Notes: generated from the sequence alone by a model not told the origin. Shown: positions 1 through 50,390, counted from the first letter of the stretch. The stretch: 64,000 nt of DNA from Actinomycetota bacterium (GCA_018831265.1 JAHJCO010000059.1:76708-140707), one strand, 5' to 3'. Numbers and translations are program-made.

Positions 1-2584
1 AAGCCACACAGTGGGCGGGGATGCGGACATGTTCGTCACCTGGGGCTCAGCAGATACGGGGAAAGCCGTCAGCGGCGTGTCCTTCATCAAGCCCGGTACC
101 GACGCCGGCCACGCCGTCGCCGTCGGTCCGGACGGCAACCCGGTGGTGGTGGGGACGACGTCAAACGGCTCGGACCTGGACCTGTACGCGGGCAAGTTCC
201 CCGCGGCGGGCGCCGGCACCGAGCTGTGGAAGATCCAGCTCGACGGCGGTGGCAACGACGTGTTGAACGGGGTCGCGGTCGGCGCCGACGGTAACCCCGT
301 GCTGGTGGGCCGCGTTTACGAAAGCGCGTCCGGTGACGACAACATCTGGATACGGTGCGTCGACGGGCAGAACGGGACGATGGTCTGGCAGCGGACCGTC
401 GACAGCGGAAAGGGAAACGACGTCGCCGACGCCGTGGCCGTGGGGCCCGACCTCTGCCCCGTGGTGGTGGGGGAGTACAACAGCGGGAGCACCATGGACA
501 TCTGGGTGCGCAAGTACGACGGCCAGGGGAACACGCTCTGGACCAGCATCATCCCGGGCGCCGTCGGCCACGACGCCGCCACGGGCGTTGCGATCGGCCT
601 GGACGGGGACCCCGTCGTCTGCGGTTACCTGCACAACGGGGCGGACACCGACACCTGGGTGATGAAGTACGATGGGCAGAACGGGCAGTCGCGCTGGTCG
701 AGGCTCATCGACAGCGGCAAGGGCTGGGACCAGGCCTTCGGCGTGGCGATCGGGCCGGACGGCAACCCGGTGGTAAGCGGCCACTTCGAGAGCGGGACCT
801 CGTGGGACCTGTGGGTGAACAAGTTCAGCGGCGCCACGGGCGGCACGGTCTGGAACCGCCTCACCAAGGGAGGGGTCGAGTGCAGCGGGCGCTCCATCTG
901 CTGCGATGCGACCGGAAACGTGATAGTCGCCGGGTACTGCACTGTGGGCACCACAAAGGATCTGATCGTCAAGAAGTACCCACCCGGTAAGTACACTTCA
1001 ATGACCACCGTCGGGTTCAAGAAGCCGGTGGAGAAGCAGGGCCAGGCGCTCTCGGGTTTCATGGAGAAGCCGGGCGCGAAGCACAAGGGGTCGGTCATCT
1101 ACCAGCTCTCCTCGAACGGGAAGGACTGGTACTACTACTCGAACGGCTGGAAGAAGGCCGCGGGCCCGGCGCAGTCCAACAGCGCCGGCGAGGTCGACCT
1201 GAGGATCGGCGACTTCGACCAGACCGCGGCATCGAAGCTGTACCTGCAGGCGTTCCTGCAGTCGAGCGGACTGGAGCAGGTGGAGCTGGACGCGGTCACG
1301 GTCTACCTGTCTCCGCCGGTCCCCAGCGGCAACAACGACCAGTGGTACCTGGCCGAGGGTTCGACCAACTGGGGGTTCTCGACCTACATCACGGTGCTGA
1401 ACCCCAACCCGAGCGCGGTGAACGCCGAGATAACCTACATGACCGGGACCGGCGCGGTGAGCGGCGGGACGGTCACGATGCCGGCGATGAGCCAGGCGAC
1501 CATAGACCCGGCGCAGGTGGTTCCCGCCACCGACTTCTCTACCAGGGTCCGCTGCGTGGAGGGCCTGCCGATAGCGGTCGACAGAACCATGTCCTGGACC
1601 GGAACGGGCGCCGCGGCCCCCGAGAGCCACTCGTCCATCGGGGTCACCTGGCCGAGCTGCGCGTGGTGCATGCCCGAGGGCTCCAGCGCCTGGGGCTTCG
1701 AGACCTGGACGCTCGTGCAGAACCCGAACCAGATCAACGCGCAGGTCAGCATAACCTACATGATGGAGAACGAAGCCCCGGTCATGGTGAACGATACGCT
1801 CCCGCCGCTCTCCCGGAGGACCTACAGCATGAAGGATCACATCGGGGAGAAGGACGCCTCCATCAAGGTGACCAGCGACGTCCCGGTCATCCCCGAGCGT
1901 GCCATGTACCGCAACAACCGGCGTGAGGGGCACGAGTCGATCCCCTGCGAGCTGCCCGGGTACGATTACTACCTGGCCGAGGGCTCTACCGCATGGGGTT
2001 TCACCACCTACCTGCTTATCCAGAACAACAACAAGGGGACGGCGGACGTAACGGTCACCTACATGACGTCGAACGGTCCGGTGATCCAGCCGACGTTCCA
2101 GATGCCCATGAGCTCCCGGAAGACGATAAGGGTGAACGATGTGCTCCCGAACGCGGACTTCTCCATCAAGGTCAGTTGCCCCGGCACGATAATAGCCGAG
2201 CGGGCCATGTACTGGAACTCGCCCACAGGCGAGGTGTGCCACGACTCGGTGGGGACAGCCGACGCACACACAACCTACCACCTGCCCGACGGCGATACCA
2301 CCAACGGAATCGAGACCTGGACCCTGGTCCAGAATCCCAACGGGAGCGACGTACAGGTAGAGGTGCAGTACCTGACGCCGGACGGCAAGGGCAACAAGTC
2401 GTTCACCGACACCGTACCAGCCAACTCCCGAAGGACATACTCGATGGCCGACCACATCACAAACGGGCGGGCAGGCATAGTGGTTACCTCGAAGACGGCG
2501 GGCGCGAAGATCATCGTCGAGAGGTCGATGTACTCCGACGGCCGGCAGGCCGGCACCGATACCATCGGGGGTTACAGGGACTGA
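1..2584 (+). CDS. Secreted repeat protein, 5'-partial (runs off window start): ~55-aa beta-propeller-like repeats followed by 4 copies of the ~110-aa 'YLAEG' module
   Basis: Frame is open to nt 2; no signal peptide, unlike the paralogs; repeated 'GVAVGPDGNPVV.G' blocks; four modules with WYLAEGST.WGF / LVQNPN / TYMT / ERAMYWN / GHDSIG motifs; paralog of 18080-20728, 50911-53784, 60341-61921. Confidence 0.75.
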   Translation, partial: SHTVGGDADMFVTWGSADTGKAVSGVSFIKPGTDAGHAVAVGPDGNPVVVGTTSNGSDLDLYAGKFPAAGAGTELWKIQLDGGGNDVLNGVAVGADGNPVLVGRVYESASGDDNIWIRCVDGQNGTMVWQRTVDSGKGNDVADAVAVGPDLCPVVVGEYNSGSTMDIWVRKYDGQGNTLWTSIIPGAVGHDAATGVAIGLDGDPVVCGYLHNGADTDTWVMKYDGQNGQSRWSRLIDSGKGWDQAFGVAIGPDGNPVVSGHFESGTSWDLWVNKFSGATGGTVWNRLTKGGVECSGRSICCDATGNVIVAGYCTVGTTKDLIVKKYPPGKYTSMTTVGFKKPVEKQGQALSGFMEKPGAKHKGSVIYQLSSNGKDWYYYSNGWKKAAGPAQSNSAGEVDLRIGDFDQTAASKLYLQAFLQSSGLEQVELDAVTVYLSPPVPSGNNDQWYLAEGSTNWGFSTYITVLNPNPSAVNAEITYMTGTGAVSGGTVTMPAMSQATIDPAQVVPATDFSTRVRCVEGLPIAVDRTMSWTGTGAAAPESHSSIGVTWPSCAWCMPEGSSAWGFETWTLVQNPNQINAQVSITYMMENEAPVMVNDTLPPLSRRTYSMKDHIGEKDASIKVTSDVPVIPERAMYRNNRREGHESIPCELPGYDYYLAEGSTAWGFTTYLLIQNNNKGTADVTVTYMTSNGPVIQPTFQMPMSSRKTIRVNDVLPNADFSIKVSCPGTIIAERAMYWNSPTGEVCHDSVGTADAHTTYHLPDGDTTNGIETWTLVQNPNGSDVQVEVQYLTPDGKGNKSFTDTVPANSRRTYSMADHITNGRAGIVVTSKTAGAKIIVERSMYSDGRQAGTDTIGGYRD

Positions 2585-2761: not shown

Positions 2762-3055
2762 ATGACACTGCTACTGGACAGCATGAGCCGGTTTGCCGAC
2801 TGGGGACCGCACATGGACTTCGACGGGGGAGGCTGGTTCTGGATGGGCATCATGATGATCGTTGGGACCCTGCTGGTGATCGCGGTGATCTACATCATCA
2901 TCAGGGCGCTCCACCAGGAGGGCGTCTTGCGGGCTCAGCCTCCGGCGGCCGGCCCGACCGAGACCCCGATGGACATCACGAAGCGGCGGCTCGCCTCGGG
3001 AGAGATAACCGAGGAGGAGTTCGAGAAGATCAAGAACCGGCTCGGGAGTCCATGA
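2762..3055 (+). CDS. SHOCT-domain membrane protein
   Basis: GGGAGG RBS; one TM helix (WFWMGIMMIVGTLLVIAVIYIII); C-terminal 'SGEITEEEFEKIKNRL' SHOCT motif. Confidence 0.65.
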   Translation: MTLLLDSMSRFADWGPHMDFDGGGWFWMGIMMIVGTLLVIAVIYIIIRALHQEGVLRAQPPAAGPTETPMDITKRRLASGEITEEEFEKIKNRLGSP

Positions 3056-3494
3056 AGCAGGTATTGATGAGCCACTCCAGGACGTCGGCGCCGGCCTCGG
3101 AGACGACGCCCGGGTAGGTCGCTAGCGGCAGGGGGGGCCCGGCGGGCGGGATCGCCTTGAGCCGTACCTTGCACGAGAACCGGCGGGAGAGGTCCATGAG
3201 GTCGGCCCTGGTCAGGTACCGACAGTAGGCCGAGGACCTGAACCAGGTCAGCCAGGGCACGATCTCTATGGTGACGGACCTGCCACCTATCTCCACGGCG
3301 ATCCTGGAGAACGGGGCCGCGGTCCCGGTAAGCAACCTCACCAGTGCGGAGCGCCCGGTGATCATCCTCTCGCCCTTCCTCTGCCCCCGCCTTACGAGCG
3401 CCCGGGCCCAGGCCGCGAGCAACCGCGACGGGCACACCGCTATCCCGGCCCTGGCAGAGCCGATCATCGCCGCCCGCTGGACACGCAAGTCCAA
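3030..3494 (-). CDS. Hypothetical protein (uncertain coding status)
   Basis: Only sizeable ORF in a 460-bp gap; no recognisable motifs; AGG/ATA-rich codon usage atypical for this genome. Confidence 0.2.
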   Translation of the reverse strand: MDLRVQRAAMIGSARAGIAVCPSRLLAAWARALVRRGQRKGERMITGRSALVRLLTGTAAPFSRIAVEIGGRSVTIEIVPWLTWFRSSAYCRYLTRADLMDLSRRFSCKVRLKAIPPAGPPLPLATYPGVVSEAGADVLEWLINTCFMDSRAGS

Positions 3495-3512
3495 GCACCT
3501 CCTCCCAGCAGA

Positions 3513-3597
3513 AGTGTAGCAAAAGGGTCAGGCACTTTTGCTACACTCTTGCCACAGGAACAGCACGTGCAAAAGGGTCAGGCACTTGTGCACATGA
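3513..3597. repeat. Two REP-like hairpins (stem ...GTAGCAAAAG / loop GGTCAGGCA / CTTTTGCTAC...)
   Basis: agtgtagcaaaag-ggtcaggca-cttttgctacact and gtgcaaaag-ggtcaggca-cttgtgcac; GTAG tetranucleotide 5' of stem. Confidence 0.8.
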
Positions 3598-3618
3598 TCA
3601 ACTGTCTGGGGTGAGAAG

Positions 3619-3981
3619 ATGGTCAGGATAATAGACCGGCCGGCCGAGGTTCTCGCGGAAGGGAACCCGCCCAAGAAGATCCTCGAGTTCGCCGGCCGGG
3701 TGAGCTCGGGTAGTAAGGATATCAGCATCGCGCTGATGAGGAGCCCGGGTGGCTGGACAGAGCCGGGACAGACGCCGGAGTTCGCAGAGTACTCGGTCGT
3801 CCTTGAAGGGATGCTGCGTGTCACCACCAGGGACGGCACTCATGACGTGCGCAAGGGACAGGCCGTGATCGTCGAGAGCGGCGAATGGGTCCAGTACGGT
3901 ACTCCGCTGCCGGAGGGTGCCGAGTACATCTCGGTATGCGTCCCCCCGTTTTCAGCCGATACAGTCCACCGCGACCCGTGA
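3619..3981 (+). CDS. Cupin-domain protein
   Basis: Small single-domain protein; two-His/Glu cupin-like beta-barrel pattern (TEPGQTPEFAEYSVVLEG...VIVESGEWVQY); flanked on both sides by REP hairpins. Confidence 0.55.
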   Translation: MVRIIDRPAEVLAEGNPPKKILEFAGRVSSGSKDISIALMRSPGGWTEPGQTPEFAEYSVVLEGMLRVTTRDGTHDVRKGQAVIVESGEWVQYGTPLPEGAEYISVCVPPFSADTVHRDP

Positions 3982-4035
3982 TGTAGCAGCAGTGTAGCAA
4001 AAGTAGCAAAAGGGTCAGGCACTTTTGCTACATCC
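3982..4035. repeat. REP-like hairpin(s), GTAGCAAAAG-GGTCAGGCA-CTTTTGCTAC
   Basis: tgtagcagcagtgtagcaaaagtagcaaaagggtcaggcacttttgctacat. Confidence 0.8.
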
Positions 4036-6511: not shown

Positions 6512-6524
6512 CTCATCCTCCTGA

Positions 6525-6659
6525 CTAGAGTAGGGGTCAGGCACTATTCTATTCATTTCCCTGATAAGTCCGCCACCGGGGCCGTGACTTGACTGGTGCC
6601 TGACCCCTACTCTAGTCGACCCCTACTCTAGTCATGTGACTTGAATCCCGCCTGGCACC
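6525..6659. repeat. MITE/REP-like element with perfect 20-bp terminal inverted repeats (ctagagtaggggtcaggcac ... gtgcctgacccctactctag) plus partial duplicate
   Basis: Perfect TIRs at 6525-6544 and 6596-6615; shares GGGGTCAGGCAC core with other elements. Confidence 0.8.
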
Positions 6660-23399: not shown

Positions 23400-23417
23400 G
23401 ATATGAGTCTAACAGTT

Positions 23418-23461
23418 TCGCATCGGGGTCAGACGCCGATGCGAATGGGGTCAGGCTGGGC
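23418..23461. repeat. REP-like hairpin, variant loop (TTCGCATCGG-GGTCAGAC-GCCGATGCGAA) plus GGGGTCAGGC half-site
   Basis: Identical hairpin at 31097-31125. Confidence 0.8.
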
Positions 23462-26448: not shown

Positions 26449-26529
26449 GCTGCCTCCTTCCTCCGCCCCCCGGAAGGGGCTTTCGACCCACGGATGCCGC
26501 CAATACGCAATCTAGAAGATTATATATGC

Positions 26530-26822
26530 GGGGTCAGGCTCAATTCAATTTCAGCGATCAAGCCGCACGACCTGTATGGTGTGAATTGAATTGTGCCTGA
26601 CCCCTAGCCTAGTCAACTTGCGGGCCGCTCGAAGTATTCAATTTCAGCGATCAAGCCGCACGACCTGTATGGTGTGAATTGAATTGTGCCTGACCCCTAG
26701 CCTAGTCAACTTGCGGGCCGCTCGAAGTATTCAATTTCAGCGATCAAGCCGCCCGATCTGTATGGTGTGAATCGAATTGTGCCTGACCCCTAGCTGAGTC
26801 ACTTGTGGCCGCTCAAGGTATT
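26530..26822. repeat. Tandem array (~93-bp unit, ~3 copies) of a MITE-like element with GGGGTCAGGC(T/A)CAATTCAATT inverted arms
   Basis: Units starting ~26581, 26674, 26767 are near-identical, including the internal segment. Confidence 0.85.
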
Positions 26823-30222: not shown

Positions 30223-31155
30223 ATGGCGAGAGACTTCAAGGGCTGGTTCAACGAGACCCGCAGGGCGGAGCTGATGCTGATAGGCATCACCGTCATCTGG
30301 GGGCTTACCTTCGCGCTGGTCAAGCGGTCGCTGGACGACATAGCGCCGTTCACCTTCATGGCCTGGCGGTTCATGCTGGCCGCGGCGATCATGCTCGTCC
30401 TCTGCGCGCGGAAGTGGAAGGGCCTGGACCGCCGCATCCTGGTCGCCGGCCTGCTGCTGGGGGCGCTGCTGTACGGCTCCTACGCGTTCCAGACCTTCGG
30501 GCTGCAGTACACCTCCGCGGGCAACGCCGGCTTCATCACCGGCCTCTTCATAGTATTCACGCCGCTGCTCTCCGTGCTGTTCCTGAGGCACAGGCCCGGC
30601 GCCAAGTCCCTTCTGGCGGTGGGCATAGCGCTGTGCGGGCTGTGGGTGCTCTCCGTGCAACCGAACATGGGCATCAACAAGGGGGACGCGCTGGTACTGG
30701 CGTGCGCCTTCACCTACTCGGTGCACATCATCCTGCTGGACAGGTACGTGAAGGTGCACGACCTGGCGCTGCTCACCTTAATCCAGATGGTGGTGCTGGC
30801 GGTGGCCAACACCGGCTCGGGTCTGGTGTTCGAGGAGTTCATCCTCCCCCCCAACGCCTTCGTCTGGATGACGGTCATCATCTGCGGGGCGCTGGCCAGC
30901 GCGCTGGCGTTCTACGTGCAGGGGCACGCCCAGAAGGTGCTGACCCCGGTTCGGACCTCGATGGTGCTCATCATGGAGCCGGTCTTCTCCGTGGTGTTCG
31001 GCATCATCATCCTGGGGGAGTCGCTTTCCTGGCGGGGCGCCCTCGGCAGCGGGCTGATCTTCGCCGGGATGCTGCTTACCGAGCTGCCTGACGAAATTCG
31101 CATCGGGGTCAGACGCCGATGCGAAAAAGTCAATCCTTCAGAGCCCGGTAAATAG
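30223..31155 (+). CDS. DMT-superfamily (EamA) transporter
   Basis: 10 TM helices, two EamA repeats; last ~20 codons run into REP hairpin 31097-31125. Confidence 0.8.
   Translation: MARDFKGWFNETRRAELMLIGITVIWGLTFALVKRSLDDIAPFTFMAWRFMLAAAIMLVLCARKWKGLDRRILVAGLLLGALLYGSYAFQTFGLQYTSAGNAGFITGLFIVFTPLLSVLFLRHRPGAKSLLAVGIALCGLWVLSVQPNMGINKGDALVLACAFTYSVHIILLDRYVKVHDLALLTLIQMVVLAVANTGSGLVFEEFILPPNAFVWMTVIICGALASALAFYVQGHAQKVLTPVRTSMVLIMEPVFSVVFGIIILGESLSWRGALGSGLIFAGMLLTELPDEIRIGVRRRCEKVNPSEPGK
31097..31125. repeat. REP-like hairpin TTCGCATCGG-GGTCAGAC-GCCGATGCGAA
   Basis: Identical to 23418-23446; abuts the 3' end of the RAYT gene. Confidence 0.8.
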
Positions 31156-31861
31156 TCGCAGGATGGACACCGAGGTGCCCGGCCACTCCGGCGACGCTGA
31201 AGCCGCGATCTCTAATGGCACTCCTGATAACGTCGTTCCTCGCGCCGGCGTCCTTGGTGCCCTTGAGGAGTGAGTTCAGTATCAGCGCCTGGTCTTTCAT
31301 GCTGGAGGCTTCGTGAAGCCCCGCGAGAACGTACCCGGTGAATTCTTCACGCGCCCTGGAGGGATTGTCTGAGAAGCATCCGAGAACGAAAGAGGTCGTC
31401 AGGAAGTCGGGTTCAATACAGAGGCCGGCCGTGGCTGAGTAACTGCTCCACCTCCAGTTCTCCGGGGACCCAGCCATGCCTTCCTTGACTGGATTGAGAA
31501 AGATATAGCGGAACAAGGCAAACAGGTGACGCTCGTTCTCCACTAGCGGAGAAAGAAACCTGCCCTGAACGACATGTCCAATCCTCTTGTGCTTCCATGC
31601 GAAGTACCGGCAGTAGTTTCCGTTCAGCTGCTGCATTCCCTCAGAAAGGTTGGCCTCGGGCGTTTCGATCAGAATGTGATAGTGGTTTCCCATCAGGCAG
31701 TAAGCATGGCAGTTCCAACGGAAATCGCGGATCGTGCCAGCCAGTCCCTTGATGAACACGCGACGATCTCCGTTCGTCAGAAAGATCTTCTGTTTATCGT
31801 TCCCTCGGGACATGACGTGGTAGAAAGCCCCTGGGAACAGCTGTCGCGGCTGTCGCCCCAT
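31130..31861 (-). CDS. REP-associated tyrosine transposase (RAYT; IS200/IS605 Y1 HUH family) with C-terminal HTH
   Basis: HUH motif 'GNHYHILIE'; Y1 transposase fold length; C-terminal 'LGVHPATIYRALKD' HTH; flanked by palindromes (31097-31125 and gtgtgcaagttgcacac at ~31890). Confidence 0.85.
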   Translation of the reverse strand: MGRQPRQLFPGAFYHVMSRGNDKQKIFLTNGDRRVFIKGLAGTIRDFRWNCHAYCLMGNHYHILIETPEANLSEGMQQLNGNYCRYFAWKHKRIGHVVQGRFLSPLVENERHLFALFRYIFLNPVKEGMAGSPENWRWSSYSATAGLCIEPDFLTTSFVLGCFSDNPSRAREEFTGYVLAGLHEASSMKDQALILNSLLKGTKDAGARNDVIRSAIRDRGFSVAGVAGHLGVHPATIYRALKD

Positions 31862-31973
31862 GAAGCAATTCTAGCAAGCAAAACAAGCGTGTGCAAGTTG
31901 CACACCTGAAAAGGTCACGAATAATACTCCCGCCGTGTTTTTTTCGCAACGGCGTCTGGCACCATTGCGAAAG

Positions 31974-33238: not shown

Positions 33239-33993
33239 TGCGACGCAACGGTAAGTACACATCGATAGCCATAGCGCTCCTCCTGGCCGCGGCGCTCGCG
33301 GCGGGCGGCTGCGGGGAGCAACCTTCACTGGCCTACGATTCTTCCGGCGGGAACGTGGTGGTGCAGGTGGAATCCGGCGGGGGGCTGGCGCCCTTCTACC
33401 TCGACACCGTGCCTTCCTTCCGCGCCTTCGGTGACGGTCGGGTCGTGAAAGCGGCGGACGATACCAGGAACAACAGCCTGCTACTGGAAGGAACGCTGGG
33501 GGACGGCGGGGTGGAGGGCCTGCTCGAGAGCATCGAGAAGGCGGGGTTTTTCGACCTGAAGGATTCCTACCGCGACGACAGGGTGATGGACGGGGTCACC
33601 GTGAGCGTCACCGTTTCGCTGAAAGACGGGAGGAAGAAGGTAGACGTCTACATGACCGAGGTGCCGGAGTTCGCCGCCACGCTGAAGGCCGTCAATGGAT
33701 TCCCGGTCACGGGCGAACACCCCTACGTCCCTGAAGAGGGGTATCTCTACGTCACCCGGCAGAACGAGCCGCCGAAGGACCCTCGGGTCCCACCGGACGA
33801 CATCGCCGCCCTGATACCCGGGGTACAGATACTCGAGCCGGCCGATTCCGCCAACGAGCCCGTGGTGGTCCCGGGCGGGGAATTCGTGAAGATAAAGGAG
33901 TGGGAGGTGACGCAGAAGTATTCGGGCCTGGACGTGCTGTCCGGAGGGACATGGTTCAAGGTCTACCCGGTGTACGAGAAGCGCGAGTACTAG
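33239..33993 (+). CDS. Lipoprotein, function unknown
   Basis: Signal peptide with lipobox 'LAAGGC'. Confidence 0.55.
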
Positions 33994-34070
33994 CGCGTAC
34001 GGACGCCCCGCGTGTCACTGGGACGGGCGATAATGATCGGTATGAAGAGACTCACGTCCCGGGAGTGTCT

Positions 34071-37000
34071 GTGAACTTCCAGAGCAACACCCTGGTCGAG
34101 GCCATCGCCTCGCTGTGCGCGGAAGAGCCGTTGAAGCCCAAGATCATAATCGCGCCCTCCAACCGGGCCGGGAACCAGTGGCTCGAGCGCGTCGCCATGT
34201 CGGGCCGTCCGGTCCTGAACGCCGGCTCCCGGACGCTCCGGGGGCTCGCCCTCGAGCTGTCCGCTCCCCTGCTGGTCGAGCGGGGGCTGCAGCTGGTGGG
34301 AGGCATCCGCGCACAGGTTCTGATGGACAGGGCCTTCGCCCGTATCTCCCCGAAAGAGCCTTACCTGTCTCGTCTCGAGCCGGGGCCGGGCCTGGTCCGC
34401 ACCCTGCTCGGAGCCGTGAGGGACCTTCGCCTCGCCGGGCTGGATGCGGACGCCGTCGACGAGCGCGCGTTCGAGGTGAGGTCCAAGGGCGCCGAGGTGA
34501 AGGCGCTCCTCGAGGCGTTCGAATCCGTGCTGGCGGAGGGCGGCTTAACCGACTACGCAGGGTGTCTCCGCCTTGCCGTCGAGCGCGTCACCTCCGATAG
34601 AGGGCTCCCGCTCGACTCCCTTGTGGCGATCCCCGCGGACCTCGAGGAGCGCCTGGCGGGCCTCGAACGCTCTCTCTGGTCGGCGATGCCTGAGAGCAAC
34701 CGTCGCATACTCGAGGTGGACCTGCCCGGCGACCCGAGCACCGACTCCTCGCGTCGTTACATGCTGAGCTTCGCCCTGCACCCCCAGACCGCGCCCGACC
34801 CCGGGCCGGACGGCGGCGGAGTCAGGATGTTCCGCGCGGTGGGCGAGGTCAACGAGGTCCGAGAGGTCTTCAGGCGGGTCGTCGAGGAGGGCCTGCCCTT
34901 CGACGACGTCGAGGTGTTGTACACCGAACCGGCAACGTACCTCCCGCTCCTGTTCGAGCTGGCCTCCCGCCAGGCGGCCGACGGGTCCGATGAGCTCCCG
35001 GTGACCTTCCTGGAGGGCGTCCCCACCCGGTACTCGAGGCCCGGAAGGGCACTGGCCGGGTGGCTGGAGTGGGTGAGGGGGGGCGATCTCCCCCAGGGTA
35101 CGCTGGTCCGCATGGTCCACGACGGGTTGCTCGAGATACCCGCGGTCGAGGGCGGCGATCTGAGCTTCGCGAGGCTGGGCGCGATACTACGGTCGGTGGC
35201 GATCGGGGCCGGGCGCGAGAGGTACCTGGCCTCGCTGGACTCGGAGGCCCGCGCCCTGACCTCGCAGATCGTGGGGCTGGACGAGGCGGAGGAGGAAGGG
35301 CGCGACGCGCGGAGACGTATCGGCCTCTCGGAGCGCCTGGAGGGCCTGGGCGCGCTGCGCGAGCTCATCGGCGGCCTCCTCGAGGTAGTCCCTTCCACCG
35401 GTGGGCAGGCGGAGGCGCTCAGCTCCGCGTCGCTGTTCCTCGAGAGGTACGCGAGGCACTCGGGGAAGTTCGACGAGTACAGCAGGGTGATACTGCTCGA
35501 CTCGGTGGCCGAGATCGAGCGGTGCCTCCAGGACGGCGAGGTTGCCGGCTTCGAACCCTGGAGCTGGCTCGATGAGGTGATCTCCTCGATCAGCGTCGAG
35601 GGATCGGGGCCTGCCCCGGGCCGGCTGCACACGGCCCCTGTGGACAAAGGCGGTCATTCCGGCCGCGGGCACACGTTCATCGTCGGCTTCGACGAGGCCC
35701 GGTTCCCCGCCGCGGGCAGGCAGGACCCCGTTCTGCTGGATGGCGAGAGAGAGCGGCTGTCGGACGATCTGCTCACGGGAGAAGCGAGGCTCACGCGCGA
35801 GCTGGAGCAGCTGATGCTGCTGTTCGCCCGGTTGAGGGGCGAGGTGACCTTGAGCTACTGCTGCCGGAGCCTCATCGACGATCGCGAGCTGTTCCCGAGC
35901 CCGGTGCTGCTGTCCGCCTACCGCGTGCTGGAGAAGCGCGACGGCGACCAGCAGGACCTGAACGCATACTGCGGGGACCCGGTCTCTTTCGCGCCGGCGT
36001 CGCCGGAGAGCGCCATCGACACCACCGAGTGGTGGCTTTCTCTCGCGTGCGGTCGGACCGACCGGCTGGTCCCGACCGGACTGGTCGTGGCGAGTTTCGG
36101 CCACCTGGGGCGCGGGATGAGGGCGCGCGAGATGAGGGAGAGCCCGGAGTTCACCGAGTACGACGGCTACGTGCCCGAGGCCGCCTCGGAGTGCGATCCC
36201 GCGCGCGAGGGGGCGAGGCCGCTCTCGGCGTCCGCCCTCGAGGAGCTCGCGAGGTGCCCGCTGGAGTATTTCCTCCACCGTGTCCTGCGCATAGATCCGC
36301 TCGAGGAGTACGAGATCGACCCCAACGAGTGGCTGGACGCCAGGCAGGTCGGCCACTTTCTCCACGGCTGCTTCAGGATCTTCCTCGAGCGCCTGGACGA
36401 GCGGGGCGAGCGCCCGAGCCGGGACGCCCACCTCGCCGAGCTGCGGCGCCTGTTCGACGATGAGCTCGCATACTGGCGGCGCGTGGTGCCTCCACACAAC
36501 GAGGCTTCCTACAAGGCCCAGGCCAGGATGCTCGAGCGCGCCGCCTGCATCTTCCTGACGGAGGAGGAGCTGCACTGCGTCGACAGGCGGCCTGCGTACT
36601 TCGAGGTCTCGGTGGGTCGGATGCCCGACCTGCCCGGGAGGCGAGGCAACGAGATAGACACCGCCGAGCCCGTGCTTGTCTCCCTGCCGAAGGGGATGGT
36701 CTTCCGCGCCCACGGGCAGATGGACAGGGTGGACGAGCTCCCTGGCGCACCCGAGGGCCGTCGCTTCGAGGTCTGCGACTACAAGTCGGGCGGCGCCGGC
36801 CGGTACGACGTCAACGACCCGTTCGCCTGCGGCCGTCACGTGCAGAACATCCTGTATACGCTGCTCCTGCAGAGCAGGCTCGACGAGCTCTTTCCGGGCG
36901 CGCGCGTAGAGGGTTTCAGCTACTACTTCCCCAGCCTGTACGGAAGGGGTGAGCGGGTGGGATGGACCATGGATGAGCTCGAGGCGGGGGAGACGGTCCT

Positions 37001-37220
37001 CGCGGATCTCTGTGCGATGCTCGCAACCGGCTGCTTCCCGTTCACCATCAACCCGAACCTCGACCTGACCTACAGCGATTTCGTCTTCGCGTACGGCGAT
37101 GTCGCCGATGCCGCCAGGCAGGCGAGAGTCAAGGTAGATAACCTCGCCAACGAGGCGCTGCTGCCTTACCGCGAGCTGCGCGCCCGCGAGCTGGACGAGG
37201 AACAGGAAGAGGGCGAATGA
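34071..37220 (+). CDS. addB: AddB/RexB-like PD-(D/E)XK nuclease subunit (no Walker A)
   Basis: GTG start with GGGAG RBS; C-terminal RecB-type nuclease motif 'FEVCDYKSG'; ~1050 aa; immediately upstream of and overlapping the AddA-like gene. Confidence 0.7.
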   Translation: MNFQSNTLVEAIASLCAEEPLKPKIIIAPSNRAGNQWLERVAMSGRPVLNAGSRTLRGLALELSAPLLVERGLQLVGGIRAQVLMDRAFARISPKEPYLSRLEPGPGLVRTLLGAVRDLRLAGLDADAVDERAFEVRSKGAEVKALLEAFESVLAEGGLTDYAGCLRLAVERVTSDRGLPLDSLVAIPADLEERLAGLERSLWSAMPESNRRILEVDLPGDPSTDSSRRYMLSFALHPQTAPDPGPDGGGVRMFRAVGEVNEVREVFRRVVEEGLPFDDVEVLYTEPATYLPLLFELASRQAADGSDELPVTFLEGVPTRYSRPGRALAGWLEWVRGGDLPQGTLVRMVHDGLLEIPAVEGGDLSFARLGAILRSVAIGAGRERYLASLDSEARALTSQIVGLDEAEEEGRDARRRIGLSERLEGLGALRELIGGLLEVVPSTGGQAEALSSASLFLERYARHSGKFDEYSRVILLDSVAEIERCLQDGEVAGFEPWSWLDEVISSISVEGSGPAPGRLHTAPVDKGGHSGRGHTFIVGFDEARFPAAGRQDPVLLDGERERLSDDLLTGEARLTRELEQLMLLFARLRGEVTLSYCCRSLIDDRELFPSPVLLSAYRVLEKRDGDQQDLNAYCGDPVSFAPASPESAIDTTEWWLSLACGRTDRLVPTGLVVASFGHLGRGMRAREMRESPEFTEYDGYVPEAASECDPAREGARPLSASALEELARCPLEYFLHRVLRIDPLEEYEIDPNEWLDARQVGHFLHGCFRIFLERLDERGERPSRDAHLAELRRLFDDELAYWRRVVPPHNEASYKAQARMLERAACIFLTEEELHCVDRRPAYFEVSVGRMPDLPGRRGNEIDTAEPVLVSLPKGMVFRAHGQMDRVDELPGAPEGRRFEVCDYKSGGAGRYDVNDPFACGRHVQNILYTLLLQSRLDELFPGARVEGFSYYFPSLYGRGERVGWTMDELEAGETVLADLCAMLATGCFPFTINPNLDLTYSDFVFAYGDVADAARQARVKVDNLANEALLPYRELRARELDEEQEEGE

Positions 37221-40200
37221 CCGTGCAGCCCGCGAGCCAGCCACCCCCGGACCAGGACCAGCGCGACCTGATCGTCAGCGCGCTCGACCGCAACGTTGTG
37301 GTCGAAGCCGCGGCCGGAACTGGGAAGACCACCAGCATGGTGGACCGCATGGTGGCGCTGCTTCGCACGGGTGCGTGCGACGATATCCGGAGGATGGCGG
37401 CGGTGACGTTTACCCGGAAGGCCGCCTCCGAGCTGCGCGACCGCTTCAGACTTGCCCTGGAGAAGGCCGTGCGCGGGGCCGCCGGCGACGAGAGGGGGCG
37501 CCTTGCCGGGGCGCTGGACAGCATAGACCAGTGCTTCGTGGGTACGATCCACTCGTTCTGCGGCCGGCTGCTCCGCGAGCGGCCCATAGAGGCGGGGGTG
37601 GACCTCGCCTTCGAGGAGCTCGACGAGGACGCCGATATGCGCCTGCGCCAGGAGGCATGGGCGGCATATGCCGAGTCGGTGATAGGGCTCGGCCCGGGGA
37701 GCGTGATCGACGAGCTCGACGACCTCAACCTGGACCTGTCCGACCTCGCCGACACCTTCTACAGGTTCGCCGAGTACCCGGACGTGGACGACTGGCCCCT
37801 GCCTCCCGAGAGCGAAATGCTCGAGGACCTCGACGAGGCGGCAGTAGCGGTGAAGCGTTTCACGGAGCGCATGAGGAAGCTCGCCGACAGGCTGCCCAGG
37901 GAGTGCGGCTCGGACCGGCTGATGCCGCGCTACTCGAAGATGCCGAGGGTGGTATCGCACTACGAGGACCTGAGCGAACGCGCTTCCATGCTCGAGCTCA
38001 TCGACATGTTCTTCGACAAGCGCTCGGGCGCGGTGCTAAAGGAGTGGGTGCAGAAGGGCGGGTTTACCCAGGAGGAGGCGCGCTCGGAGCGCGAGGCCTG
38101 GGACGCTTTCCGCGAGGAGTTCGCCGCGCCGCTCGCCGAGGCGTGGCGGGAGCTTCGCTACCGCACGGTCATGAAGGTGATAACCGAGGCCGGGGCCGTC
38201 TACGATCGCATGAGGGCGGAGCGCGGCCAGCTCGACTTCCAGGACCTGCTGATGAAGGCGGCCGGCCTGCTCAAGGGGAGCCCTCACGTGCGCTCCTACT
38301 TCGCAGGGCGCTACTCGCACCTGCTGGTCGACGAGTTCCAGGACACCGATCCCATACAGGCGGAGGTCATGCTGCTGCTTACCGCTACCGACCCCCGCCA
38401 GGACGACTGGCGCCTGTGCGTGCCCCGCGGCGGGTCGCTGTTCGTTGTGGGGGACCCCAAGCAGTCGATATACCGGTTCCGCAGGGCAGACATCGTTACC
38501 TACAACAGGGTGAAGCGGATGATCCTGGAGGGCGACGGCGGGAAGGGCCGCGGCATCGAGGTCCGGCTGTTCGCCAACTTCCGCACGTCGGCGGCCGTCA
38601 TCCAGTGGATAGACGAAGTCTTCGCGCCCAAGGGTGACTGCACGGACAAGTCCGGCAGGCTGGTTTGCTTCCCGGAGGCGGCCTCCGAGCAGTCTCCGGC
38701 CTACGTCCGGCTGGAGGCCGGCCGGAGCGAGTCCCTTCAGGGCGAGCTGGGAGGAGTGTTCCAGTTGACCATACCCTCCGACGAGATCCTGCTCACCTCC
38801 CACCTCGTGGAGGGCGGACCGCCGACCGCGCAGGAGGCCGCGGTCCTGGCGCGCCGGTACACCAGGAGCGAGCTTGCGGCGTCCTACGAGGCGGACCTCA
38901 TCGCCCGCTACATCCGGTGGGCGATAGACGATCGCGTCACCGTTCCCCGAAGCGAGAAGGAGCTCGAGGATATCCACAGGCGCATGCCCTCGTGCGAGGA
39001 CCCGGCCGCGCTTCGGGCCGAGGACTTCCTGATCATCACGCGAAACAAGACCCACCTGAGCACCTACGGCCAGGCACTCCAGAGGTACGGCATCCCGCAC
39101 CGGGTGACGGGGGGCACTGCCCTGAACGAGGTGGAGGAGCTCCGGCTGCTGCTGACCTGCCTCCGTGCGGTGGACAGGGTCGATGATCCCGTGGCGCTGG
39201 TCGGGGCACTGCGGAGCGAGCTGTTCGGCATCAGTGACGCGGCGCTATACCGGTTCAGGAGGAACGGCGGCCGATTCAACTACAACGGCCCGGTTCCCGA
39301 GGGGCTGCCCCCCGGGGACGAGGAGGCCATCACCGACGCCTTCGACAGGCTGCGCCGGTACCGCGGCTGGGTGAAGACCATGCCACCGCTGGCCGCCTTC
39401 GAGAAGGTCGTCTCGGACCTGGGGCTGATGGTGCTGGCCGCGACCCGCGACGGCGGAGACGTCCAGGCGGGCAGCCTCGGCAAGGCGCTCGAGTTGCTCA
39501 GGGGTGACCAGCGCGCGCACTGGAGCACCTCCCACCTGGTCGATTTCCTCGCCGACCTGGTCGAGGGCGAGTTCAGCTACGACGGGGTGTCGGCACGGTC
39601 ACATGAGGTCGGGGCGGTGAGGGTGATGAACCTCCACAAGGCCAAGGGGCTGGAGTCCACGGTGGTGTTCCTCGCCGACGGCTCCGGCGAGCCCAGGTCG
39701 GGCCCGGAGATCGTCATCGACCGCGGCGGCGACCGGACGATCGGCTACATCGGAGTGTTCGGCCCGAGGTGGGGCGCCTGGTACAGGCCCCTGCTGGCGG
39801 CGCCGGGCGGCTGGGCGGACCGCCAGGCGGTCGAGAAGGAGTTCGAGGCCGCCGAGAGGCTGAGGTTGCGCTACGTGGCGGCCACCAGGGCGGGCTCGGC
39901 GATGATCGTGTGCGAGCGCGAGGACGGCAGGGCCAACGGCTCCAATCCCTGGAAGTATTTCAGGGATCACCTCGCCGGGGTGCCCGACCTGCCTGACCCG
40001 GGCCCGAGGAGCGCACCATCACGGGAGGCGCTCGACATCTCGGTGGAGGACGTGACGAAGGCTTCAGAGGAGGCGGCCGGCAGGATGCGGCGCGCAGAAG
40101 GTCCCACCTACGCGAGGCTCGCGGCCAAAGAGTACGCGCTCCGGGGAAAAGATTTTGCAAAAGGGTCAGGCACTTTTGCACCATCAACCACGGGCGGGCC

Positions 40201-40684
40201 GGAGTATGGCATCAACTGGGGCACCGCCATGCACATGCTGCTGGAGCTGGCTATGAGCCGGCCGGGCTTCGATGTCGAGGCCTGGGCGGAGAGGGTGCTG
40301 GGGGAGAACGAGATCGATCCGGGTGAGACGCCGCGGGCGGTGGAGACCGTCCGGGCGGTCACCGGATCGGCGTTGTGGGAAAGAGCCCTTGCCTCCGACC
40401 TGTGCCTGACGGAGGTCCCGTTCCACATGCTCCTCGGGGATGCGGACATCCCCACCACGATGAACGGGGCCATGGACCTGGCTTTCCGCGAGGAGGGGGG
40501 TTGGGTCATAGTGGACTACAAGACCGACAGGATAAGCGCATCGAGGAGCGAGCGGGCCCTGGCGGACGAGTACGCCCCGCAGCTCGAGCTGTACGGCCGG
40601 GCCTGGGCGGGGTGCACCGGCGAGACCGTCAAGGAGACCGGCCTGTTCTTCGTGGACAACCGTACATACCACAGGATCAGATGA
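37217..40684 (+). CDS. addA: AddA/RecB-like UvrD-family helicase with C-terminal PD-(D/E)XK nuclease
   Basis: Walker A 'AAGTGKTT', 'TFTRKAASELRDR'; C-terminal 'GWVIVDYKTDRI'. Confidence 0.85.
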   Translation: MTVQPASQPPPDQDQRDLIVSALDRNVVVEAAAGTGKTTSMVDRMVALLRTGACDDIRRMAAVTFTRKAASELRDRFRLALEKAVRGAAGDERGRLAGALDSIDQCFVGTIHSFCGRLLRERPIEAGVDLAFEELDEDADMRLRQEAWAAYAESVIGLGPGSVIDELDDLNLDLSDLADTFYRFAEYPDVDDWPLPPESEMLEDLDEAAVAVKRFTERMRKLADRLPRECGSDRLMPRYSKMPRVVSHYEDLSERASMLELIDMFFDKRSGAVLKEWVQKGGFTQEEARSEREAWDAFREEFAAPLAEAWRELRYRTVMKVITEAGAVYDRMRAERGQLDFQDLLMKAAGLLKGSPHVRSYFAGRYSHLLVDEFQDTDPIQAEVMLLLTATDPRQDDWRLCVPRGGSLFVVGDPKQSIYRFRRADIVTYNRVKRMILEGDGGKGRGIEVRLFANFRTSAAVIQWIDEVFAPKGDCTDKSGRLVCFPEAASEQSPAYVRLEAGRSESLQGELGGVFQLTIPSDEILLTSHLVEGGPPTAQEAAVLARRYTRSELAASYEADLIARYIRWAIDDRVTVPRSEKELEDIHRRMPSCEDPAALRAEDFLIITRNKTHLSTYGQALQRYGIPHRVTGGTALNEVEELRLLLTCLRAVDRVDDPVALVGALRSELFGISDAALYRFRRNGGRFNYNGPVPEGLPPGDEEAITDAFDRLRRYRGWVKTMPPLAAFEKVVSDLGLMVLAATRDGGDVQAGSLGKALELLRGDQRAHWSTSHLVDFLADLVEGEFSYDGVSARSHEVGAVRVMNLHKAKGLESTVVFLADGSGEPRSGPEIVIDRGGDRTIGYIGVFGPRWGAWYRPLLAAPGGWADRQAVEKEFEAAERLRLRYVAATRAGSAMIVCEREDGRANGSNPWKYFRDHLAGVPDLPDPGPRSAPSREALDISVEDVTKASEEAAGRMRRAEGPTYARLAAKEYALRGKDFAKGSGTFAPSTTGGPEYGINWGTAMHMLLELAMSRPGFDVEAWAERVLGENEIDPGETPRAVETVRAVTGSALWERALASDLCLTEVPFHMLLGDADIPTTMNGAMDLAFREEGGWVIVDYKTDRISASRSERALADEYAPQLELYGRAWAGCTGETVKETGLFFVDNRTYHRIR
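40156..40180. repeat. REP hairpin (TGCAAAAG-GGTCAGGCA-CTTTTGCA) embedded in frame in the AddA-like CDS
   Basis: Encodes ...DFAKGSGTFAP... in the linker before the nuclease domain. Confidence 0.75.
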
Positions 40685-41514
40685 GCGAGCACATGCTTCT
40701 GCCCGAGGTCGACTTCTGCGCCTTCGACCTGGAGACGACGGGGCTGTCCAACTTCAGCCGGATAGTGGAGGTCGGGGCGGTCCGGTTCCGCCTCGAGGCG
40801 GTGCACGACCGTTTCAGCGAGCTGGTCCACCCCGGCAGGAGCATCCCCGAGGTGGTCATCGGCATACACGGAATCACCGACACCATGGTCGCGGGGGCCG
40901 CGGCGGCGCCGGAGGTTATCGATCGGTTCTTCGAGTTCGCGGACGGGTGCGTTCTAGTCGCGCACAACGCGGCGTTCGACTCCGGGATAATGGCCACCGA
41001 GTTGCACAGGGCCGGGCTGGAGCCGCCCGAGCCCCTCATCCTCGACACCATCGCGCTGGCCAGGAGGTTCCTGCCGAGGCTGCCGAGCTACGGGCTGGGC
41101 GCCCTCTCGCGCGATCTGGGCATCGGGCGGCCCCGCAAGCACCGCGCCCTCGAGGACGCGGAGGCCTGCAGGAGGATCTTCGAGAGAACCGTGCTCTCGG
41201 TCCCGGAGTGGCAAGGCCGGCCACTGGACCTGCTGGCCGATGCCGCCGGCGGCTGCACCCTGCGCTACCGGCCGCAGGCGCCCTCCGATCTGCCCCCCGG
41301 CATGGAGGCCATCCTCGCCGCCCTCGAGAGGCGCGGTGACGTGGTGGTAGTCTACAGGGGGGGCAGCAAGGGCACCGTGCCCAGGCGACTGTCGCCGGTA
41401 TCGGTGTACTCGGCGGGGGGTCACTGCTACATGGAGGCCCGCTGCCACGTGGACAACGTGACCAAGTCTTTCAGGGTCGACCGCATCGCCAGCGTAGAGC
41501 TCTGGGAGGACTGA
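40681..41514 (+). CDS. DEDDh 3'-5' exonuclease (DnaQ-like) fused to a C-terminal WYL-like domain
   Basis: Exo I 'FDLETTG', Exo II 'LVAHNAAFD', Exo III 'HRALEDA'; C-terminal 'VVVVYRGGSKG...RLSPVSVY..HCYMEARC...SFRVDRI' WYL pattern; ATGA overlap with the AddA-like gene. Confidence 0.7.
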   Translation: MSEHMLLPEVDFCAFDLETTGLSNFSRIVEVGAVRFRLEAVHDRFSELVHPGRSIPEVVIGIHGITDTMVAGAAAAPEVIDRFFEFADGCVLVAHNAAFDSGIMATELHRAGLEPPEPLILDTIALARRFLPRLPSYGLGALSRDLGIGRPRKHRALEDAEACRRIFERTVLSVPEWQGRPLDLLADAAGGCTLRYRPQAPSDLPPGMEAILAALERRGDVVVVYRGGSKGTVPRRLSPVSVYSAGGHCYMEARCHVDNVTKSFRVDRIASVELWED

Positions 41515-41521
41515 GCTTCCC

Positions 41522-43204
41522 ATGGCCAGGATGATCCCCGAGATAGAGGTCGGCCGGTATCCCCACGGCGAGGGACTCCTCTACCGCTGGCTCAAGGGGC
41601 TGCCCGACGATTACCGCGTCTTCCACGGCGTCCACCTGCTCCGGCAGTCCGGCGGCTCGCTGAGGCGCGGAGAGGCCGACTTCGTGGTGCTCCACAAGGA
41701 CCTGGGCTTCCTGGTGATAGAGGTCAAGGGCGGCAAGGTCACCTGCCAGCCGGGTAGGGGCCGGTGGACCTCGACGGACTACCGGGGCGAGGAGCATCCG
41801 ATCAAGGACCCGTTCCTGCAGGCTGAACGCAACGTCAACGCCATCGTCGAGCGCATCAGGGACTCAGGGGTGTTCGGCCCCGGCCCGCTGAAGACCCTGC
41901 CCGTCACGGTGGGCTACTGCGTAGCCTTCCCCGACGGGGTGGCGCAGCAGAAGAACCTCCCGCTGCACGTGGTGCCGGAGGTCGTCATAGACAGCCGGGA
42001 CGCGGCCCGGATGGCCGCGCGGATCGAGGGGCTGTTCGGCGCCTGGCGAAAGAAGAGGCCCGGATCGCGCGGCTTCACCCCCCGGGAGTTCAACGACCTG
42101 TGCAACAAGGTCCTGCTCACCCGGTTCAACGTGACCGTGCCCCTGAGCGTGAGATTCGGGAGGGAGAAGGAGCGCTTCGAGTCCCTGACCGACGAGCAGT
42201 GCCGCATCCTGGAGACCGTCTCCGGCGGGAAGCGCGCCCTGTTCAGGGGATACGCGGGGACGGGCAAGACGCAGTTGCTGATGGAGAACGCCAGGCGCTT
42301 CGCCGCCGCCGCCGCCCGGGTACTGGTGGTCTGCTACAACCAGCCGCTCGCGGAACTCCTCTCACAGTGGGCCGCGAACGTCTGCGGAGCCGGAGGCGTA
42401 ACGGTCAGGCACTTCCACGGCCTCGCCGAGGAGTATGCCGGCGAGGCGGGTCTCGACTTCGATGTCCCGCCGGAGGACGAGCCGGACGCGCTGCAGGCCT
42501 TCTACGAGAGGGGATCGGCGGCCCTGCTGGAGGCGGCGCTTGCCGAGGCGCCCGGACGTTTCGATTGCGTGCTGGTGGACGAGGGCCAGGACTTCCACCT
42601 GGAGTGGCTGCGGGTGCTCTCGGAGCTGCTCGACCCGGCGGGGATGGACGTCTTCCACATCTTCTACGACGAGCAGCAGAACGTCTACGGCAAGGAGCTC
42701 GAGTTCCCCTTCGAGGCCGTGCCCTACGACCTGAGCTATCAGATGCGCAGCACCGCGAACGTCTGCGAGGTCGCCCGGAAGGCCGGCTCGGTCGATATCC
42801 GGTGCTTCCCAGACTGGGTCAAAGGTGCCCCCGTGAAGTACTTCCCCTACCGTGAACCGTCCGAGCAGGTCGCCCTGATCGAGAAGGTGGTCAGGGAGCT
42901 TCTCGACAAAGGCATCGACCCCTCACAGGTGATGGTGATCTCGTCACACCGCAGGGCCCGCTCCTGCCTGGCCGGGGTCAACCGACTGCAGGGGTACCCG
43001 CTGGTGGAGTACCGGCCCCCCGGCGAGGAGGACACCATCGCGTTCTCCAGCCTGCACCGCGCCAAGGGCCTCGAGTCGGACGTGGTGATCTTCTGTGACG
43101 TGGACGGCGGCGAGCCGTACTGCAGCCGCTCAAACCAGTACGTGGCGGTCTCGCGCGCCCGCCACCTGCTCTACATCATCCACCGCAGGGACTGGAAGCT
43201 TTGA
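41522..43204 (+). CDS. NERD-domain nuclease fused to SF1 (UvrD/DUF2075-like) helicase
   Basis: N-terminal NERD 'GEADFVVLHKDLGFLVIEVKG'; Walker A 'GYAGTGKTQ', Walker B 'VLVDEGQD'; C-terminal 'SLHRAKGLESDVVIF'. Confidence 0.75.
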   Translation: MARMIPEIEVGRYPHGEGLLYRWLKGLPDDYRVFHGVHLLRQSGGSLRRGEADFVVLHKDLGFLVIEVKGGKVTCQPGRGRWTSTDYRGEEHPIKDPFLQAERNVNAIVERIRDSGVFGPGPLKTLPVTVGYCVAFPDGVAQQKNLPLHVVPEVVIDSRDAARMAARIEGLFGAWRKKRPGSRGFTPREFNDLCNKVLLTRFNVTVPLSVRFGREKERFESLTDEQCRILETVSGGKRALFRGYAGTGKTQLLMENARRFAAAAARVLVVCYNQPLAELLSQWAANVCGAGGVTVRHFHGLAEEYAGEAGLDFDVPPEDEPDALQAFYERGSAALLEAALAEAPGRFDCVLVDEGQDFHLEWLRVLSELLDPAGMDVFHIFYDEQQNVYGKELEFPFEAVPYDLSYQMRSTANVCEVARKAGSVDIRCFPDWVKGAPVKYFPYREPSEQVALIEKVVRELLDKGIDPSQVMVISSHRRARSCLAGVNRLQGYPLVEYRPPGEEDTIAFSSLHRAKGLESDVVIFCDVDGGEPYCSRSNQYVAVSRARHLLYIIHRRDWKL

Positions 43205-43212
43205 CTAGGATA

Positions 43213-43260
43213 GGGGTCAGGCACCATTCAAGTCATTTGACTTGAATGGTGCCTGACCCC
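43213..43260. repeat. Perfect 48-bp palindrome (GGGGTCAGGCACCATTCAAGTCA tt TGACTTGAATGGTGCCTGACCCC) between convergent genes
   Basis: 23-bp perfect arms; sits between the stops of 41522-43204 (+) and 43321-44544 (-). Confidence 0.85.
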
Positions 43261-43320
43261 GGGTCTAGTCACGCGCGGGGCTGAGAGCCCCGCCTCAAAG
43301 CCCCGCCTCGACAGCCCTCT

Positions 43321-48328: not shown

Positions 48329-48360
48329 GCGCTCCCCCCTTGGAGTCGGTTACCCCTACG

Positions 48361-48393
48361 ATGTAATAAAAGGGTCAGGCCCTTTTATTACAT
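48361..48393. repeat. REP hairpin ATGTAATAAAAG-GGTCAGGCC-CTTTTATTACAT
   Basis: Loop conserved, stem differs from the other copies. Confidence 0.8.
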
Positions 48394-48463
48394 CTGCTGT
48401 ACCTGTCACTGCATAGAATAATGACTTCGGGCGTCAAGCGCCAACCCCTGCTCCTGACTCCCT

Positions 48464-50273: not shown

Positions 50274-50302
50274 TGTGCAAAAGTGCCTGACCCTTTAGCA
50301 CA
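50274..50302. repeat. REP hairpin (reverse orientation) TGTGCAAAAG-TGCCTGACC-CTTTAGCACA just 3' of the tRNA
   Basis: Loop is the reverse complement of GGTCAGGCA. Confidence 0.75.
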
Positions 50303-50313
50303 TCAGGGTCGTG

Positions 50314-50390
50314 TGGAGCCCCGGGCGGGACTCGAACCCGCGACCTACGGATTAGGAATCCGTCGCTCCATCCGTCTGAGCTACCGGGGC
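50314..50390 (-). tRNA. tRNA-Arg (anticodon CCU)
   Basis: Cloverleaf: acceptor GCCCCGG/CCGGGGC, D-stem GCTC/GAGC, anticodon stem ACGGA/TCCGT with loop TTCCTAA, T-arm GCGGG-TTCGAGT-CCCGC, encoded CCA. Confidence 0.85.

Follow-up and report, generated by a model that had tools for sequence, protein, structure and literature searches.

A RAYT-type REP translated in frame as part of the inter-domain tether of an AddA-like helicase-nuclease in an uncultured Actinomycetota lineage

REP sequences (repetitive extragenic palindromes) are, by definition, extragenic, and effects of REPs on proteins have, to our knowledge, rarely been documented. In the arrangement that defines REP/RAYT systems, the gene of a REP-associated tyrosine transposase (RAYT) lies between two inverted REPs (Nunvar et al., 2010; PMC2817692), and in the REPIN model REP singlets are regarded as immobile remnants (Bertels and Rainey, 2011; PMC3116915). 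Repeats that are read in frame within working genes are known from the Rickettsia palindromic elements (RPEs) and from several repeats resembling MITEs (miniature transposable elements with inverted repeats) (PMC3184786; PMC5896051). As far as the account relayed in PMC3184786 goes, RPEs measure 105-146 bp, encode 35-50 amino acids and are present in many intragenic copies per genome (Ogata et al., 2000). Here, we describe a REP that lies in frame inside the gene of an AddA-like helicase-nuclease (hereafter addA) in a stretch of 64,000 nucleotides from an Actinomycetota bacterium (JAHJCO010000059.1:76708-140707; the window, with positions counted from its first nucleotide). It is a clear case of an in-frame repeat in a working protein, and one with precedents; what is distinctive is that the repeat is a short RAYT-type REP, that the host belongs to an uncultured lineage of Actinomycetota and that the repeat makes up most of the inter-domain tether of a DNA-repair enzyme.

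The 36-mer gattttgcaaaagggtcaggcacttttgcaccatca was found at 40151-40186, in frame with the open reading frame (ORF) 37217..40684 on the plus strand, and is translated as DFAKGSGTFAPS, corresponding to residues 979-990 of the AddA-like protein. A sequence-only reading of the window had placed a REP hairpin translated in frame at 40156-40180, just before the C-terminal nuclease domain, and was borne out in both respects, as an 8-bp inverted repeat lies within codons 979-990 and the Pfam matches of the protein comprise UvrD-helicase at 14-434, UvrD_C ending at residue 898 and PDDEXK_1 beginning at 1001. At 25 of 25 positions the 25-nt core matches that of a REP flanking a RAYT gene of the same assembly (L065 2232-2258). 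In the closest available relative, the metagenome-assembled genome (MAG) GCA_043807425.1 (the sister MAG), the addA copy is a complete canonical REP of the GTTGC type with a 10-bp stem that reads VAKGSGTFAT, and two outer pairs of this stem are lost in the window copy, where non-synonymous G-to-T and A-to-C changes replace V by F and T by P, respectively. Allowing up to two mismatches, the 25-mer recurs four more times in the window (3518, 3568 and 4005 on the plus strand, 50276 on the minus strand; none expected from 100 shuffles), and the repeat type, termed type A, amounts to six copies in the 64 kb, all of which are intergenic apart from the one in addA. Six of the eight core codons (GCA AAA GGG TCA GGC ACT TTT GCA) end in A or T, and this contrast with the gene, in which the GC content at third codon positions is 0.89, argues for a non-coding origin of the REP core. 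A hypervariable linker could hold nearly any sequence, and an ordinary lineage-specific linker might thus resemble the repeat by chance; given the identity to a REP beside a RAYT gene where no match is expected, the full canonical REP in the sister copy and a codon usage atypical for the gene, this explanation is effectively refuted and retains a vanishingly small probability.

The assignment to a REP/RAYT system follows from a second locus of the same genome. RAYT-2 (P0130) is a Y1_Tnp protein of 248 amino acids, 51% identical to RAYT-1 encoded in the window, and its gene (L065 1501-2247) lies on another contig of the window's assembly GCA_018824995.1 between inverted REPs of the addA type at 1431-1459 (+) and 2232-2258 (-), which have the form GTGCAAAAG-GGTCAGGCA-CTT(C/T)TGCAC. 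The upstream REP is GTGCAAAAGGGTCAGGCACTTCTGCAC, and the downstream one is the reverse complement of GTGCAAAAGGGTCAGGCACTTTTGCAC, its loop providing the TGA stop of the gene. Because a RAYT-type gene of the same assembly is flanked by two inverted copies, the element is considered a bona fide REP: it is a repeated stem-loop palindrome, its copies are mostly extragenic and inverted copies surround a RAYT gene. An orthologue of RAYT-2 with its own REP pair occupies the syntenic site in the sister MAG (L064), and RAYT homologues between inverted REPs with the same core were also found in the Actinomycetes MAG nzgw108 (L020) and in Ca. Aveggerthella (L034).

Similar to the REP/RAYT systems of E. 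coli (TnpAREP/YafM), Pseudomonas and Stenotrophomonas (PMC2817692), the repeats are short imperfect palindromes of ~25-35 nt that occur in many, mostly intergenic copies, their 5' head (GTAGC, GTGC or GTTGC in most copies) may correspond to the GT(A/G)G head, their stems carry compensatory changes, and a single Y1/HUH gene is found between two inverted copies with the downstream REP abutting the gene end. The system differs from the classical gammaproteobacterial ones in its uncultured Actinomycetota host, in a RAYT with a C-terminal helix-turn-helix (HTH) and, for RAYT-1, a score under the REP_Tyr_transpos cut-off, in a stem that is A/T-rich in a genome of 68% GC, in an inner stem and loop of 19 nt that are common to several lineages while the outer stem differs, and in the intragenic, translated addA copy. 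Inverted REP doublets as in REPINs occur in related lineages (L033, L055, L052), whereas the addA copy is a singlet.

The extent of the family was determined by a scan for the 19-nt core AAAAGGGTCAGGCACTTTT, in which each species was represented by one genome and which revealed ~28 loci in the sister MAG, several loci each in Ca. Aveggerthella (Coriobacteriia), nzgw108 and an uncultured Coriobacteriia genome, and scattered single matches. The head, which is itself inside the stem, is GTAGC, GTGC or GTTGC in most copies, TTTGC in the window addA copy and ATGTGA or TTCACC in other lineages; the outer stem is thus lineage-dependent, and its complementarity is kept throughout. In an alignment of 48 copies, in which the inner 19 nt are invariant solely because they served as the search key, 88.7% of the cells are paired and eight pairs are altered on both sides, with a covariation score of 0.42 versus 0.125 after shuffling and at most 0.128 when the partner is slid. 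These compensatory changes show that the hairpin is maintained in the repeat family.

The comparison of AddA homologues shows how narrowly the insert is distributed. The peptide GSGTF is present in two of 120 homologues, namely the window protein and its 91%-identical sister (P0001, P0002), and the others are about 47-55% identical to the window protein. Between the conserved motifs AKEYAL and GEHGVEWG these relatives carry non-homologous linkers of similar or greater length, which are unalignable, mostly acidic and Pro-rich and comprise 17-39 residues (median 26; 60 aligned), and in the window protein the tether has 20 residues of which 12-15 stem from REP codons. The orthologue alignment proposed by the sequence-only reading therefore bears out that the 12 residues are confined to the window and its sister; a clean empty site cannot be demonstrated with it, the tether being hypervariable. 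In the AlphaFold model (mean predicted local distance difference test score, pLDDT, 84.3) the repeat occupies a tether that is predicted to be disordered, with pLDDT below 50 at 962-996, coil at 977-994 and confident structure on either side of the insert.

Two MAGs that were assembled independently of each other both carry an unbroken addA ORF. The window and sister genes share 92.7% nucleotide identity with dS 0.186 and dN/dS 0.235, dN/dS is 0.30 in the nuclease domain downstream of the insert and ~0.76 in the linker, where flanking codons changed between the MAGs, and the homologue alignment is invariant at the Walker A, DExx and nuclease D/D-x-K (D..DYK) residues. Gene disruption is common when repeats insert into coding sequence (review PMC3184786). 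Inactivation of addA in some lineages had been offered as one outcome, and the gene might also be on the way to becoming a pseudogene. With 1155 codons open in both insert-bearing MAGs, purifying selection on the whole gene and on the nuclease domain, invariant catalytic residues and confident modelling of the regions before and after the tether, this outcome is very improbable, and the gene is presumably functional. The other outcome offered, a REP insertion tolerated as a linker, agrees with the data, since orthologues of ~50% identity are without the residues and the gene is intact under purifying selection. As in the Rickettsia RPEs, an in-frame palindromic repeat adds a peptide to the product of a working gene at a structurally permissive site with function kept, here with an ORF open in two MAGs, a predicted disordered tether as the site and a presumed function; different from the RPEs, for which no RAYT is known, the insert comprises 36-45 nt and is the one internal in-frame copy among ~45 examined.

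We interpret the locus as the probable result of an in-frame REP insertion that was tolerated, became co-opted passively and is older than the divergence of the two MAGs. A REP of the genome's own REP/RAYT system would have been placed, by insertion or by copying, in the tether-encoding stretch of addA, landing in a stop-free frame in which the canonical REP reads V-A-K-G-S-G-T-F-A-T. As judged from the sequence, three to five of the six frames of the canonical REP contain no stop, the number varying with the head variant, so that an open in-frame landing is not improbable. The Gly/Ser/Thr-rich peptide would have been tolerated because a tether requires length and flexibility and not a particular sequence; the insertion would have occurred before the two MAGs split, with purifying selection acting on the gene since then, and the REP-derived codons probably act as a spacer. 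We infer that RAYT activity, and not recombination or gene conversion, placed the REP in addA; the ancestral tether sequence was presumably lost, and the REP peptide presumably has no role beyond spacing. That a split gene was fused again and thereby trapped an intergenic REP as a linker was rejected as unparsimonious, all 120 of 120 homologues being single chains.

Several observations weigh against this interpretation. Without the repeat the window tether would measure ~5-8 residues and fall short of every one of the 60 orthologues, the minimum of which is 17. The repeat was therefore probably not just added; its history is probably more intricate than that, and the protein may by now depend on it instead of merely tolerating it. 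The nearest repeat-free homologue is just ~54% identical, so that the boundaries and the mechanism of the insertion are deduced across that distance. The contig of RAYT-2 is assigned to the genome of the window by binning and by synteny with the sister MAG, and both genomes are MAGs. Moreover, the 25-nt core is the same at 25 of 25 positions in both MAGs despite an overall divergence of 7%, which might point to a constraint on the DNA or RNA, although at no significant level. The short remaining tether would also fit a REP pasted into addA through recombination, gene conversion or template switching in the course of repair, taking the place of part of an older, longer tether. In the window copy, a 5' arm of GTTGC-like sequence is joined to a 3' arm of GTGC-like sequence; this mixture, and recurrent duplications of the 5' arm in the family that point to slippage-prone replication, speak for such a route as well; direct evidence for it is lacking, and as the mechanism of REP spreading is not established in any organism, the end product fits both routes. 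We regard this pasting as possible, if rather doubtful, next to an insertion by the RAYT.

The conserved core raises the further question whether the intragenic hairpin is functional as a nucleic acid, in mRNA processing, stability or translational pausing, or as a site for RAYT binding or cleavage, and has been kept for that. Consistent with such a role, the core is unchanged in both MAGs where flanking linker codons differ, its A/T-ending codons have not been ameliorated, and the fold is more stable than that of shuffled sequences (RNA dG -11.3 kcal/mol, z = -2.95; DNA dG -8.4 kcal/mol, z = -4.4). However, ~1.5-1.8 changes would be expected in the core between the MAGs and none was seen, which has a chance of ~0.15-0.2 and is not significant, and the identity was therefore rejected as evidence of constraint, being compatible with chance at that divergence. 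Furthermore, no hairpin of the family is weaker than that of the window addA copy (the sister addA copy has an RNA dG of -13.3, intergenic copies -18 to -20 kcal/mol), and two outer pairs of the window copy were lost relative to the sister by non-synonymous changes. No T run follows the hairpin, and in an Rfam search a tRNA was the sole match, so that the hairpin corresponds to no described RNA family. The orientation of REPs relative to neighbouring genes is loose (~11 co-oriented, five opposite; bias not significant). A nucleic-acid role is thus considered unlikely beside a tolerated insertion that serves as a spacer. An internal start or a terminator after the hairpin was also tried and rejected, as an in-frame ATG with a ribosome-binding site and a T run are both absent.

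Related hairpins also occur outside the Actinomycetota. Two Campylobacterota MAGs, of Helicobacteraceae (L007 426-2219) and Sulfurospirillaceae (L030), contain RAYT homologues and hairpins of the form AAAAG-GGTCAGGCA-CTTTT in the same loci; in the former, two inverted hairpins bracket the RAYT homologue, and in the latter the nearest hairpin is ~2 kb away. This suggests that, across phyla, the REP core goes along with this RAYT clade. A core that is unchanged across several classes of Actinomycetota and beside Campylobacterota RAYTs, with outer stems compensated by lineage, could mark an undescribed clade of HTH-bearing RAYTs in which the loop is the recognition determinant and which moves horizontally with its REP, and the addA copy might then be kept as a nucleic-acid element, for example for the docking of a RAYT or as a structure in the mRNA of a DNA-end-processing gene, rather than merely as codons; this extension is a speculative and quite unlikely one.

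The locus provides a RAYT-type REP that has long been translated (dS 0.186) within a conserved enzyme of recombinational repair. It is a natural example of selfish repeat DNA supplying a linker and shows the tolerance of the AddA/RecB tether, and the view of how AddAB works is unaltered by it. In addition, it brings to light a REP/RAYT system of uncultured Actinomycetota in which one genome appears to have two RAYTs and two classes of hairpin and the core is conserved across distant lineages. The shared REP core is useful for asking what RAYTs recognize, which is a more open question than the insertion in addA. The features of the window are collected in Table 1.

Table 1. Features of the 64-kb window that bear on the translated REP, its host gene, the dispersed copies and the resident RAYT gene.
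Feature	Position	Strand	Remarks
AddA-like UvrD-family helicase with C-terminal PD-(D/E)XK nuclease	37217..40684	+	1155 aa, intact; Pfam and NCBIfam matches
Tether between helicase part and nuclease domain, residues 975-994	40139..40198	+	hypervariable in 60 orthologues
Candidate remnant of a duplicated 5' arm	40145..40155	+	GGAAAAGATTT; in the sister GTCGAAAAAGT; putative
REP-derived codons 979-990 (DFAKGSGTFAPS)	40151..40186	+	includes decayed outer stem GAT..ATC
REP core inside addA	40156..40180	+	perfect 8-bp stem TGCAAAAG/CTTTTGCA, 9-nt loop GGTCAGGCA
AddB-like partner gene	33900..37220	+	1106 aa, C-terminal PDDEXK_1; AddB/RexB matches weak, no stronger ones
Intergenic REP, canonical type A, AGTGTAGCAAAAG-GGTCAGGCA-CTTTTGCTACACT	3513..3547	+	dG -18.1
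Intergenic REP, type A, GTGC variant, one stem mismatch	3567..3591	+	25-mer match
Intergenic REP, type A, with duplicated 5' arm at 3994-4002 ahead	4003..4031	+	25-mer match
Intergenic REP, compensated different stem GATGTAATAAAAG...CTTTTATTACATC	48360..48394	+	dG -20.4
Intergenic REP, type A, adjoining tRNA-Arg(CCT) 50314-50390	50276..50300	-	25-mer match
RAYT-1, RAYT-like Y1 (HUH) transposase gene with C-terminal HTH	31130..31861	-	243 aa, Y1_Tnp
Type B hairpin TTCGCATCGG-GGTCAGACG-CCGATGCGAA flanking RAYT-1	31097..31125	+	identical solo copy at 23417-23445
Inverted, diverged type B hairpin, other flank of RAYT-1	31937..31965	-	

The host gene shows the architecture of AddA, with a UvrD-type SF1 helicase ahead of a RecB-type PD-(D/E)XK nuclease and an AddB-like gene adjoining, whose ORF end overlaps the addA start by 4 nt. 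The closest relative of the protein in the PDB is B. subtilis AddA (3U44). The scores against the NCBIfam equivalogs addA_alphas and addA_Gpos are 225 and 212 bits and miss both cut-offs (861 and 708); because they lie so far below, AddA-like is the proper wording, and from its sequence the gene is placed on a divergent branch as a member of neither curated AddA equivalog. Directly 3' of the addA and addB genes (40681-43204), an RNase_T exonuclease with WYL domain and a NERD-domain SF1 helicase are encoded, in the same order as in the sister MAG; with addAB, they may form a nucleic-acid-processing or defence-like cluster. Within the gene of the NERD/UvrD_C helicase (41522-43204), the core-like sequence AACGGTCAGGCACTT with one mismatch is found at 42400-42414; it is kept in the sister MAG, a convincing stem is absent, and either a REP that decayed long ago or mere coincidence may explain it.

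RAYT-1 matches Pfam Y1_Tnp with 34.9 bits (cut-off 23) and NCBIfam REP_Tyr_transpos with 69.5 bits, under the cut-off of 80. Its sole PDB match is E. coli TnpAREP (4ER8; E = 0.007), with the HUH and YIxxNP motifs aligned, and residues H60, H62 and Y119-I-x-x-N-P are conserved in four RAYT homologues. Homologues of RAYT-1 are labelled by JGI as 'REP element-mobilizing transposase RayT', and the sister MAG lacks RAYT-1 at the corresponding syntenic position. With RAYT-1 beside type B hairpins and RAYT-2 beside type A REPs, the genome appears to hold two RAYT/REP pairs and two hairpin classes; the loop of the type B hairpin resembles that of the type A REP.

JGI metagenome searches added neither further addA alleles nor empty sites: the addA-REP junction AGGCACTTTTGCANCATCAACC gave no matches, and a search with a 23-mer of the REP returned five contigs that belong to an unrelated lineage and have different outer stems; blastn similarity to the window and a RAYT were both absent from them. 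Among other intragenic candidates, L010, L024, L009, L019, L022 and L043 were rejected: their long stop-free frames, the product of a crude ORF caller, extend by read-through into 5' regions and do not code. In the sister MAG, a back-to-back REP doublet (L052 3660-3750) is read through at the 3' end of ORF 2839-3750 and gives it its ~20 last codons and stop, which is probably a C-terminal protein extension by REP sequence. Such a probable 3'-end fusion is shared with other intragenic small mobile sequences, namely Bordetella BRE, pneumococcal BOX/RUP/SPRITE and Coxiella MITEs (Delihas, 2007; PMC5896051), which are MITEs of the terminal-inverted-repeat type or longer composites, unlike the RAYT-type REP singlet in addA.

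Tandem duplication of the REP 5' arm recurs in the family (window 3994-4031, L031, L015 and the sister addA at L001 12930-12950), for example as GTAGCAAAAG-TAGCAAAAG-GGTCAGGCA, and may have been left behind by slippage or by the way in which the repeat is copied. The A-rich segment upstream of the REP in both addA alleles resembles the duplicated 5' arm of some intergenic copies and is possibly a remnant of such a duplication. Long MITE-like palindromes were observed at 43203-43275 and 6520-6640, with arms that carry GACTAG..TAGGGGTCAGGCACC.TTCAAGTCA; they hold the REP-loop core GGGTCAGGCAC, placed within the stem instead of the loop, and this motif occurs 12 times in the window versus 0.11 expected. 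An intergenic region at 26520-26810 consists of three tandem 93-bp units, each with the MITE-like terminus GAATTGAATTGTGCCTGACCCCTAGCCTAGTCAAC at its end.

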